DNA of 31,184 nucleotides from positions 123,342 to 154,525 of the forward strand of contig JAVZCB010000003.1 in assembly GCA_038874595.1 (NCBI GenBank), given 5' to 3'. The DNA comes from Candidatus Micrarchaeia archaeon. Its GTDB lineage: Archaea; Micrarchaeota; Micrarchaeia; CAILAH01. Within the stretch, counting starts at the first letter, position 1, and every line of letters starts with the position of its first letter. Below, piece after piece: positions 9,442-26,049 of this stretch. The notes under the pieces were generated by a model. That model saw nothing but the letters and a program-made list of their open reading frames with translations, was not told the origin of the DNA and did not search any database. The position numbers and the translations under genes are program-made.

Positions 9442-9963
9442 GTGAGATGTTTCATAGCAGCCGAAGTAAGCGGGCATACACGTGATATGATAGCGAATGC
9501 TATGCGCCACACTGATAAGTATGCACTTAAGGTTGTTGGCCCCGAGCTTATGCATATCACCATCAAGTTCCTTGGTGACATCAGCGATAGCGATTTGGAG
9601 GTATGCAAGCGCGCAGTTGATGATTGCGCAGGCGCACAAATCCCAATAAAGGTTGTAGGCGGTGGTGCATTCCCTAACCCATACAGGGCCCGTGTGATTT
9701 ACGCAAGCATAACCTCCCCAGAACTGTATGCAGTGGCGGACTGCATCAGGAAACGCACGTCACAGTACGGTGATAACAAGCCGTTTGTGGGGCACTTAAC
9801 GGTTGCGCGCACACGCAACTCACCAATCAACGCAACAGGCATTATTGAGCGGCTGAACACTATCAGGACGGAAGATACAATCTCAAAAATCAGCATTAAG
9901 AAGAGCACGCTCACGCCATCAGGCCCTATTTACGAGGATATACACACAAAAATTTTGGGATAA
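9442..9963 (+). CDS. thpR: RNA 2',3'-cyclic phosphodiesterase (2'-5' RNA ligase family)
   Basis: MRCFIA start, two 2H motifs (HITIKFLG, HLTVAR), GAFP and STLTPSGPIY. Confidence 0.95.
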   Translation: MRCFIAAEVSGHTRDMIANAMRHTDKYALKVVGPELMHITIKFLGDISDSDLEVCKRAVDDCAGAQIPIKVVGGGAFPNPYRARVIYASITSPELYAVADCIRKRTSQYGDNKPFVGHLTVARTRNSPINATGIIERLNTIRTEDTISKISIKKSTLTPSGPIYEDIHTKILG

Positions 9964-10093
9964 GCAAAATTGAGCGGCTGAACACTATCAGGACGGAAGA
10001 TACAATCTCAAAAATCAGCATTAAGAAGAGCACGCTCACGCCATCAGGCCCTATTTACGAGGATATACACACAAAAATTTTGGGATAAGCAAA
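9844..10093 (+). repeat. Perfect 125-bp tandem duplication of the thpR 3' end, including its stop codon
   Basis: ATTGAGCGGCTG...TTTTGGGATAAGCAAA at 9844-9968 and 9969-10093. Confidence 0.95.
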
Positions 10094-10109
10094 AACTTCT
10101 CAGTAATCA

Positions 10110-24471: not shown

Positions 24472-25212
24472 ATGACAGGAATAAACCTTGTATTGTTTGA
24501 TAAGAAGCCTAAATACAGCGGTTATACGCTTATTGAAGGGTTCCCGGGGTATGGGCTGGTCGGCACGATAGCTGTTAATTTTCTGGTTGAGAAGTTCAAT
24601 ATGGAGCTTATTGGTTATGCGGAATCACCTCTTTTCCCACCAATCGTTGCGATTCACGATACAGTCCCTCTCCCACCGTTGAGGATTTACAAATCCGACA
24701 AGTATAAGCTGCTCATCGTAATGTCAGAGTTTGTAATGTCAATGAAAGCGGTGCACGCAATGGCAGATGTGATTTATGATTGGTGCCAGAAGAATAACGT
24801 GCGCAGGATAATATCACTTGGCGGCATTTCAATCTCCGGTAAGCAGGATGAGGTGTTTGGGATTACATCCGACCCAAAAGAGGTTAAGATGTTTTATAAG
24901 TATGGCATACTCCCTATCAAGGAGGGCGCAACCACAGGCATAAATGCGTTGCTGTTACAGAAGGCTGCAATGGGCGGTAAAGTCCCGGTGATATCTTTCC
25001 TTGCAGAAGCAAAGCCGGACTATGTTGACCCGCTCGGTGCTGCAATGGTGCTTACATCCCTATCAGATTATCTTGGGATACAGATTGATACAACAGAGCT
25101 TGTAAAAGAGGCAATGATTATTGAATCAAAGCTCAGGAAGAATTTAGAGGCAGTGAAAAAGGCCGAAACGACGTTTAAGGATACTGCATCAACAGGCGGG
25201 ATGTATGCATAA
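24472..25212 (+). CDS. Proteasome assembly chaperone (PAC2 family)
   Basis: EGFPGYGLVGTIA, PPLRIY, ISLGG, DPLGAA; C-terminal HbYX-like motif MYA. Confidence 0.92.
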   Translation: MTGINLVLFDKKPKYSGYTLIEGFPGYGLVGTIAVNFLVEKFNMELIGYAESPLFPPIVAIHDTVPLPPLRIYKSDKYKLLIVMSEFVMSMKAVHAMADVIYDWCQKNNVRRIISLGGISISGKQDEVFGITSDPKEVKMFYKYGILPIKEGATTGINALLLQKAAMGGKVPVISFLAEAKPDYVDPLGAAMVLTSLSDYLGIQIDTTELVKEAMIIESKLRKNLEAVKKAETTFKDTASTGGMYA

Positions 25213-25471
25213 TCCGGATGTGCCCGTGCAATAGATTAGCTTATATACACATACACATATGATGATGTATGCATAATCCTGGATATGCCTGTGCAATAGA
25301 TTAGCTTATATGCACATACACATATGATGATGTATGCATAATCCTGGACATGCCTGTGCAATAGATTAACTTATATGCACATACACATATGATGATGTAT
25401 GCATAATCCTGGACATGCCTGTGCAATAGATTAACTTATATGCACATACACGTATCGGAATGCATGCATAA
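25200..25471 (+). repeat. 64-65-bp tandem array (4 units plus terminal 12-bp copy) starting at the PAC2 stop codon
   Basis: Units begin GATGTATGCATAATCC at 25200, 25264, 25329 and 25394; closing ATGCATGCATAA at 25460; a few substitutions between units. Confidence 0.95.
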
Positions 25472-25525: not shown

Positions 25526-25893
25526 GCAGGGGTGGCGGAGCCCGGTCAAGCCATGCTGGCCAAAAGCAAGCTTTTGCAGCCACATCGGCTCCGGAAAAAC
25601 GCGCCGGATTTAGGAAGAAGGGTGGAAGTGAGTACCCTTCCCCCCTTCTCAACCCACCTATCCCCTTGAGAGCGGAAGCGGTGTGTGAAAGAGGTGGAAG
25701 TGAGTACCCTTCCCCCCTTCTCAACCCACCTATCCCCTTGAGAGCGGAAGCGGTGTGTGAAAGAGGTGGAAGTGAGTACCCTTCCCCCCTTCTCAACCCA
25801 CCTATCCCCCTCAAAGGAGCTGGGTTGCATCTTCATAGATGTAAAAAGTCCGGTCCCCTAGCGGGTTCGCCAGTTCAAATCTGGCCCCCTGCA
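25526..25893 (+). tRNA. tRNA-Leu(TAG) with two introns (D-loop 25548-25596; anticodon loop 25615-25847)
   Basis: Acceptor stem GCAGGGG/CCCCTGC plus A73. D-loop intron has a clear bulge-helix-bulge (CCGG-TCA-AGCC / GGCT-CCGG-AAA). Anticodon arm CCGGA-TT-TAG-G|G-TCCGG with TTTA/TAAA central helix; long variable arm; T arm GCCAG-TTCAAAT-CTGGC. Confidence 0.88.
25621..25809 (+). repeat. Perfect 72-bp tandem repeat (45-bp R x3, 27-bp S x2) inside the tRNA-Leu anticodon intron
   Basis: GGTGGAAGTGAGTACCCTTCC...CCTATCCCC at 25621, 25693 and 25765. Confidence 0.95.
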
Positions 25894-26049
25894 CTTTATC
25901 CACACCTCTAAGCATCAGCCGATAACTCGCGGTTTGTGCTTAGCAGGTGAGCCTCATCACCGCTTTTTTAAGAGGCATCCGTTAAAGTGTAGAGTCTAAG
26001 AATCTGCACGTACGGGAACAATTAAAAATGTGCACGATAAAAGAGCAAT

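Follow-up and report, generated by a model that had tools for sequence, protein, structure and literature searches.

A tandemly arrayed two-hairpin module in the anticodon intron of a micrarchaeal tRNA-Leu(UAG) gene

Positions 25526-25893 of the DNA considered here, a window of 31,184 nucleotides (nt) from a Candidatus Micrarchaeia archaeon (GenBank assembly GCA_038874595.1, contig JAVZCB010000003.1, positions 123,342 to 154,525 of the forward strand), form a single-copy tRNA-Leu(UAG) gene which is interrupted by two introns and has a precursor of 368 nt. The second intron lies at the canonical position 37/38 and carries a perfect tandem repeat of a hairpin module that recurs in other tRNA introns of the same archaeal family. 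We consider it probable that the gene is functional, that both introns are of the type removed by the tRNA endonuclease EndA, and that the array arose when a pre-existing module was acquired by exchange with another intron and then multiplied by unequal recombination or replication slippage.

The source genome (G000), which belongs to a DPANN archaeon, is an assembly of 0.92 Mb with 44% GC and an estimated completeness of 93.5%. It was compared with eight other genomes of its family (f1) and with 142 genomes from other families of the class; G001 and G002 belong to the same genus as G000 and G003 to a sister genus, and the comparison genomes are incomplete metagenome bins. The tRNA-Leu(UAG) gene was parsed by hand and with a custom stem scan, and ARAGORN in intron mode was used elsewhere in the genome. 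In its default mode ARAGORN called no tRNA at 25526-25893, and an Rfam search of the gene matched no family, either at the gathering cut-off or at E values up to 10. A coding reading of the locus was dropped, as Pfam found nothing in the two open reading frames (ORFs) which overlap the gene.

Excision of positions 25548-25596 and 25615-25847 leaves an 86-nt class II tRNA that ARAGORN recognizes as tRNA-Leu(tag) with a normal cloverleaf, which bears out the preliminary description of the locus as a tRNA-Leu(TAG) gene with a D-loop intron and a 233-nt anticodon intron. The exons, which flank the repeat, align base for base with the intron-less tRNA-Leu(GAG) of the same genome, and exon 3 lies within a 54-nt match (query positions 315-368) that is 100% identical in G002. 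The minimum free energy (MFE) fold of the whole 368-nt precursor retains the acceptor, D, anticodon, variable and T arms as well as the splice helices. CCA is not encoded. Leu(UAG) is represented by one gene only among the five leucine isoacceptors of G000, and the gene must work because CTA accounts for 8.2% of the leucine codons in the genome. The parts of the gene, all on the plus strand, are as follows.

25526..25547, plus strand: exon 1, with the acceptor 5' strand, the D-stem 5' strand and the D-loop to nt 20a (from the Leu(GAG) alignment and the spliced product)
25548..25596, plus strand: intron 1, 49 nt, in the D-loop at 20a/20b, with a relaxed bulge-helix-bulge (from the MFE fold)
25597..25614, plus strand: exon 2, with the D-stem 3' strand, the anticodon stem 5' strand and the anticodon loop to G37; the anticodon TAG is at 25611-25613
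25615..25847, plus strand: intron 2, 233 nt, at the canonical 37/38 position (from the MFE fold and the spliced product)
25848..25893, plus strand: exon 3, with G38, the anticodon stem 3' strand, the long variable arm, the T arm, the acceptor 3' strand and the discriminator A
25615..25665, plus strand: intron-start cassette, composed of the leader AAGAAG and R1, with a hairpin from intron nt 2 and the core CCCCTTCTCAACCCACCTATCC (69.4 bits with the covariance model)
25621..25809, plus strand: tandem array, with R1 at 25621-25665, S1 at 25666-25692, R2 at 25693-25737, S2 at 25738-25764 and R3 at 25765-25809
25810..25847, plus strand: ancestral intron tail, with a diverged S-like strand CTCAAAGGAGCTGGGTTG, a closing hairpin CATCT/AGATG at 25828-25841, then TAAA and AA (from the fold and the match to G001)

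The splice motifs of both introns are relaxed and not of the strict hBHBh' form. The helix of intron 1 pairs CCGG at 25542-25545 with CCGG at 25591-25594; it is accompanied by a strict 5' bulge, cut between TC and A, and by an inner helix AGCC/GGCT, while the 3' cut, between AA and A, sits in an A-rich internal loop of the MFE fold. The pair of cuts can be shifted by 1-2 nt to give the same product owing to the runs of A. The clear bulge-helix-bulge that had been described for this intron is therefore only partly upheld: its length of 49 nt, its non-canonical D-loop site and a clean 5' bulge stand, but the motif is relaxed with its 3' cut in an internal loop. In intron 2, the central helix TTTA/TAAA is kept as previously described (25609-25612 with 25842-25845) and the 3' bulge is strict, with the cut between AA and G. 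The 5' bulge, cut between GG and A, leads directly into the long hairpin of the module.

The array in intron 2 repeats a 72-nt unit 2.6 times in tandem at 100% matches, which is far beyond chance. It corresponds to the 45-bp segment that had been noted to occur three times, separated by an identical 27-bp insert, and the coordinates of these segments (R and S, respectively) were confirmed. In R, a 14-bp interrupted hairpin (AGAAGGG-T-GGAAG ... CTTCC-C-CCCTTCT) precedes the core CCCCTTCTCAACCCACCTATCC, and the helix begins at intron nucleotide 2, immediately past the 5' bulge. S is rich in G and T and, on folding, pairs with the core of R, while the core of R3 pairs instead with the diverged tail CTCAAAGGAGCTGGGTTG. 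Pairing of the invariant core with a downstream G/T-rich strand of variable sequence was found in 9 of 9 folded module instances from five genera. Because S pairs with the invariant core, R and S together form a two-hairpin intron module, and S is not a foreign insert. The proposal that intron 2 has become long by recent tandem duplication thus holds, but its duplicate-plus-insert form does not, since S is the 3' strand of the second hairpin. Homologs of S follow R in other introns and genera, which is at odds with S having been inserted between duplicated targets, and the R-S-R-S-R tract is 91% identical to an intron of another tRNA gene (see below), so that a pre-existing module was arrayed. 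The internal units lack the full leader, having GAAAGA in place of AAGAAG, and score 50.9 bits with the covariance model compared with 69.4 bits for the intron-start cassette. This difference fits local duplication and speaks against whole cassettes having been inserted one after another at the splice site.

The number of units was assessed with Logan contigs from public metagenome runs, and the runs holding the Leu(UAG) locus are hot-spring metagenomes. The contigs end inside the repeat, so the units cannot be counted on them, but contigs from runs of two studies contain the leader-R, R-S-R and R-tail junctions. In run X1 the unitig bearing S has a depth of 16.3 compared with 9.2-10 in the flanks, a ratio of about 1.7. 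Based on the junction contigs in two studies and the depth in X1, at least R-S-R is real. Two copies of S are likely, and the presence of three copies of R rests on the assembly and is not proven. The D-loop intron is likewise present in contigs of two metagenome runs. A contig from a related strain has an Ile(GAU) intron with one unit fewer, though this observation is weak given a depth of 4.7.

The 22-nt core, allowing up to three mismatches, was found in G000 and in five of its eight relatives within the family. Among the 142 genomes from other families there were two hits, both chance-like, and exact scans for the core in Joint Genome Institute metagenome contigs and in viral contigs found nothing. 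The module thus appears, from its sequence distribution, to be confined to one family of Micrarchaeia. Copies of the core are all in the sense orientation and within tRNA introns, namely those of Leu(TAG), Ile(GAU) and Ile(UAU) in G000, Leu(TAG) in G001, Val(CAC) in G002, Trp(CCA) in G005 and G006, and Thr(CGT) in G007. An alignment of the hairpin from 12 copies has 93.8% of its cells paired and five pairs changed on both sides, a result reached by 0 of 500 shuffles, and this covariation supports the first helix of the module. A covariance model trained on these copies picked out more of them, and when hits outside the training set were inspected, 15 of 17 started right after either the 5' half of the anticodon loop or the T-loop sequence GTTCRA; the anticodon-loop contexts included Met, Thr, Trp, Gln, Leu(CAG) and a CGG anticodon. 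This placement establishes the cassette as a general intron start at two positions, 37/38 and the T-loop. In the cases inspected, which cover at least 10 different tRNAs, the module mostly begins at intron nucleotide 1-2 in sense orientation. Tandem growth of the module is recurrent, since Val(CAC) of G002 and Trp(CCA) of G005 also contain R-S-R dimers, as does Thr(CGT) of G007, where an insert splits the second R. A related hairpin element (GTAGGGAGCCGGCGCCCCCTAC-CACCCCGGCAACC) occurs in the 5' flanks of several tRNA genes of G000 (C2:43870/43962, C3:55268/55309, C4:78864 and C5:96683/96774), where it often touches the mature 5' end. This flank element is antisense to the tRNA, whereas all intron copies are sense.

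Orthologs of the Leu(TAG) gene adjoin the same PAC2-family gene, and the comparison with relatives that had been recommended as a check shows their introns to be in different states. In G001 the 37/38 intron has a single R and no S, and its tail is identical to that of intron 2 at 35 of 38 nt (92%). The intron in G002 contains a different module, while that in G008 has R, an S-like strand and further hairpins. G003 lacks an anticodon intron, but its D-loop carries a 49-nt intron where intron 1 lies in G000. The Leu(TAG) orthologs of G001, G002, G006 and G008 have no D-loop intron. Three leucine tRNA genes of G003 share an intron of about 49 nt in the D-loop at the intron 1 site, these being the TAG (C10:8797-8900), CAG (C11:18420-18541) and CAA (C11:12520-12675) genes. 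The pattern used for the 3' end of the D-loop intron is ill-suited to G000, and its matches beyond the three G003 leucine genes are chance hits in coding DNA. One gene can therefore be viewed in closely dated states: with one module or with another module in the same genus, with a D-loop intron and no anticodon intron in the sister genus, and with three tandem modules and a D-loop intron in G000. The locus also offers a sister array in another tRNA gene of the same cell, that for Ile(GAU).

The Ile(GAU) gene is where the closest relative of the Leu module was found. The Leu cassette and its counterpart in the Ile(GAU) T-loop intron of the same genome have 96% identity, as compared with 81% for the G001 ortholog. 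The stretch of the Leu intron that runs from nt 1 across R-S-R-S into the first 10 nt of R3 shares 91% identity over 158 nt with the Ile(GAU) T-loop intron (C1:202266-202423), and the latter intron is likewise an array of period 72. In G001 and G002 the Ile(GAU) T-loop intron is unrelated in sequence. These comparisons suggest that two introns of the genome exchanged a module tract by a crossover located in the conserved core; the direction and the mechanism of such an exchange we infer from the alignments.

Based on these observations, the 37/38 intron may be understood as three copies, joined head to tail, of a two-hairpin module specific to the family. Hairpin 1, contained in R, would supply the helix beside the 5' splice bulge because it begins at intron nucleotide 2. 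The core of R and S would form hairpin 2, with the core of the last copy making use of the older, diverged tail. An initial step would have been an exchange at the DNA level, by gene conversion or recombination, with the T-loop intron of tRNA-Ile(GAU), with the conserved core of R as the site of the crossover. The number of units would then change as identical copies of R recombined unequally or slipped during replication. Such gains and losses would spare the splice sites, because the array includes neither the anticodon stem nor the TTTA/TAAA helix nor the closing hairpin. A broad-specificity EndA of the epsilon2 type would cut the relaxed motifs of both introns and RtcB would join the exons.

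G000 encodes both of these enzymes. The two readable pieces of EndA match residues 151-261 and 264-387 of 4FZ2 (E values of 5e-44 and 3e-40), which is the three-unit epsilon2 enzyme of ARMAN-2, and RtcB was identified with an E value of 1.8e-172. The EndA gene, at C7:1-733, is cut by the start of the contig and contains a scaffold gap of 10 N, and its first ~150 residues are missing from the assembly. Epsilon2 EndA cuts strict as well as relaxed motifs at non-canonical positions (PMC3239211, PMC12397907).

Several alternatives to exchange followed by local duplication deserve consideration, the likeliest of which is that R and S constitute an actively mobile cassette with tRNA splice sites as its homing targets, either by insertion as DNA or by reverse splicing and copying back, and that the array records successive insertions at the 5' site. 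Such a cassette would account for the presence of the module at intron nt 1-2 in many non-orthologous tRNAs, at two positions and mostly in sense orientation, as well as for the enrichment of arrays at tRNA genes, the near-invariance of the core across genera, and the complete turnover of intron content at a fixed site within one genus, for example in the T-loop of Ile(GAU) in G000, G001 and G002. The units are, however, identical within a locus and 9-10% apart between two loci of the genome, which argues against a common master copy; the internal units lack the complete leader and outer stem expected of a former 5'-most insertion, and no copies were seen in G000 outside tRNA genes or their flanks. 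We regard this account as unlikely. A miniature inverted-repeat transposable element or insertion sequence was rejected, as the region has no inverted repeat pairs of 12 nt or more and the copies in the genome are at tRNA genes only. Guide RNAs are known from archaeal tRNA introns, and the module could itself be functional cargo, the excised and possibly circularised intron serving as a small RNA (a guide, a protein-binding scaffold or a decoy) whose dose is tuned by copy number. An almost invariant 22-nt core beside a covarying hairpin, and the sense orientation of every intron copy, would be in keeping with such a role. Neither intron contains a C box (RUGAUGA) or a D box (CUGA), though, no Rfam family was matched by the search described above, and a genome search yielded no antisense target of the core. 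The module is also missing from the Leu(TAG) intron of G002 and from the gene in G003, so it is dispensable for tRNA-Leu(TAG), and a cargo function is judged improbable.

The same low probability is assigned to an assembly artefact, in which the true intron would have fewer units (R-S-R or R only) and a short repeat would have been over-expanded. The assembly is metagenomic, the 189-nt array is longer than one short read, and the Logan contigs end inside it; against this are the R-S-R junction contigs from two studies, the raised depth of the S unitig in X1, and related arrays at several other tRNA genes and in independently assembled genomes. Least credible is a scar of off-target spacer integration by a CRISPR (clustered regularly interspaced short palindromic repeats) system, with R as the duplicated target and S as the captured spacer. 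In its favor are a true CRISPR array in the genome with a period near 72 nt and the similar duplicate-plus-insert layout that the preliminary description had reported at gene ends. It was rejected for the Leu array, since both copies of S are identical; homologs of S follow R in Ile(GAU) (22 of 27 nt), in Ile(UAU) and in introns of G002, G005 and G007, and S pairs with the core; the 45/27 split does not fit the 31/35-40 of the resident array; and Cas1 was not found in the assembly. The resident array, at C6:76862-77817 at a contig end, has a 31-nt repeat, GTTTCAATCCTACAATAGGCTCGATTCTAAC, and a period of 66-71.

Exchange and local duplication remain the preferred account of the Leu array, and a number of points weigh against it. 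The copy number rests on a short-read assembly, and the contigs prove only the three kinds of junction. The contrast between 81% and 96% identity may partly reflect fast evolution of the hairpin in G001 instead of exchange. Plain slippage fails to explain the enrichment of arrays at tRNA genes, which suggests targeting, and a neutral, purely structural model offers no explanation for a 22-nt core that is near-invariant across genera while its pairing partner varies. No RNA run was found to contain the locus, and one metatranscriptome gave no coverage of it. A more speculative idea, which we put forward as possible but doubtful, is that the hairpin-plus-core cassette is a portable 5' splice-site half which seeds or replaces tRNA introns wherever the tRNA supplies the other half of the motif, and that the 22-nt core is a recognition site for the copying machinery. 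If this were true, the arrays and the Leu-Ile exchange would be direct footprints of the mechanism by which archaeal tRNA introns are gained.

Expansion is not restricted to the Leu(TAG) gene. A heuristic stem-based scan of G000 gave 42 tRNA genes, 37 of which, being longer than 95 nt, count as interrupted; T-loop introns occur in 21, and 13 are at least 200 nt long. As had been suggested, the tRNA introns of the genome were surveyed for length and repeats, and others proved to be similarly expanded and not ordinary: Val(CAC) has an array of 72 nt in 3.3 copies (72x3.3), Ile(GAU) one of 72x2.1, and a 42x3.4 array lies in C2:11803-12202. Among 20 arrays with a period of at least 40 and matches of at least 90%, 10 fall within tRNA genes or 100 nt to either side of them, four of these inside introns and the rest in leaders or over 3' ends. 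Such zones account for 1.7% of the genome and for 18.6% of its roughly estimated non-coding DNA. A crude binomial calculation, in which the arrays are not fully independent, gives P values of 4e-13 relative to the whole genome and about 6e-5 relative to non-coding DNA. With half of the long arrays in 1.7% of the genome, tRNA genes are hot spots for arrays, and the earlier view of tRNA introns as tolerated sites or targets can be sharpened to preferred rather than merely tolerated sites. Perfect or near-perfect arrays at tRNA ends are located at C1:24517-24732, C3:55244-55342, C2:669-815, C3:54785-54987 and C6:28402-28533. Those that touch tRNA 5' ends include one of 80x2.7 before Leu(CAA) and one of 41x2.4, and others repeat the tRNA 3' end together with an insert (Ala(GGC) 63x2.3, a 91x2.2 array, and Asn 55x2.4).

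The closest known counterparts include the disrupted tRNA genes and the epsilon2 EndA of ARMAN-2 (PMC3239211). ARMAN-2 belongs to the same phylum and shares with G000 the enzyme type, as judged from the 4FZ2 match, as well as relaxed motifs, several introns per tRNA, and introns at 37/38, in the T-loop (59/60) and elsewhere. Disrupted tRNA genes amount to 56% in ARMAN-2 and to 37 of 42 in G000. The introns of G000 differ in that they reach 233-386 nt, share hairpin modules and contain perfect tandem repeats, features of which no description was found in the parts of the ARMAN-2 accounts consulted or by literature searching. A second precedent is provided by the transposed tRNA introns of Thermoproteales (Fujishima et al. 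2010, via the review PMC4090602), which are near-identical introns in tRNAs of different identities and at different positions. G000 shares near-identical introns in non-orthologous tRNAs, here Leu 37/38 and Ile 59/60. Near-identical introns in different tRNAs and positions therefore indicate DNA-level copying between introns. The Thermoproteales differ in phylum and endonuclease type, and the 5'-splice-site cassette, covarying hairpin, invariant core and in-intron tandem amplification are particular to the present case.

The Leu array also resembles duplications of the minisatellite type in being a perfect head-to-tail array of 72-nt units with a non-integer number of copies, and in the possible difference in units between strains at Ile(GAU). 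It differs from minisatellites in that the G000 arrays lie inside an essential RNA gene and are concentrated at tRNA genes well beyond the share of these genes in non-coding DNA. The tRNA-Trp gene of Haloferax has a long intron which carries a C/D box guide RNA. Both that intron and the one described here are long 37/38 introns with conserved internal sequence, but in the latter no C/D boxes, no kink-turn signature and no target complementarity were found.

The review PMC4090602 calls the mechanism by which archaeal tRNA introns arrive and spread unknown, and a 2026 survey of Asgard archaea (10.64898/2026.10.13.758758) found no general route of tRNA intron gain. A full-text literature search returned no description of the cassette, of its tandem amplification or of such a series of states. 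What thus appears to be new is a cassette fixed to the 5' splice site that has been amplified in tandem to yield introns of 233 nt or more, together with the series of states within a genus. The epsilon2 system apparently copes with introns that exceed the tRNA itself several-fold in length, and the sequence beside the 5' splice site is a conserved and exchangeable cassette. The Leu array may serve as a dated example of intron exchange and growth in an archaeal family.

Repeats are also found elsewhere in the window. The second tRNA gene, at 5626-5904 on the minus strand, has a 205-nt intron with two copies of another hairpin module (CACTGATGG-hairpin-...CCCTCGTGTGGTCTACACC...), which agrees with the earlier remark that both tRNAs of the window are affected. 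The second of these copies holds a 51-nt double-hairpin insert, and about 130 nt of the intron recur in the T-loop intron of Ile(UAU) (C1:42170-42300). ARAGORN calls this gene Cys(GCA) with an intron inside the anticodon; parsing at 37/38 and the G discriminator favor Arg(GCG). Just downstream of tRNA-Leu(UAG), positions 25913-25961 (minus strand) match the model of the fluoride riboswitch below its threshold (21.3 bits compared with 34, E 0.08). This match is likely chance or a terminator hairpin, because it sits behind the 3' end of the neighboring minus-strand ORF.

Upstream of the gene, positions 25200-25455 hold an array of four 65-nt units with 96% matches, which takes in at its start the final codons and stop codon of the PAC2-family gene and occupies most of the spacer to the tRNA promoter. 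Each unit has an imperfect hairpin, and a diverged copy of the PAC2 gene end (ATGCATGCATAA) comes after the array. At the orthologous locus of G002 (isolate SKW51) the end of the PAC2 gene is only about 55 nt from the tRNA and no array is present. A perfect 125-nt duplication (2.0 copies) at 9844-10094 spans the 3' end of the ORF at 9442-9963. The occurrence of several arrays that are 100% identical suggests a high current rate of tandem duplication in this genome.
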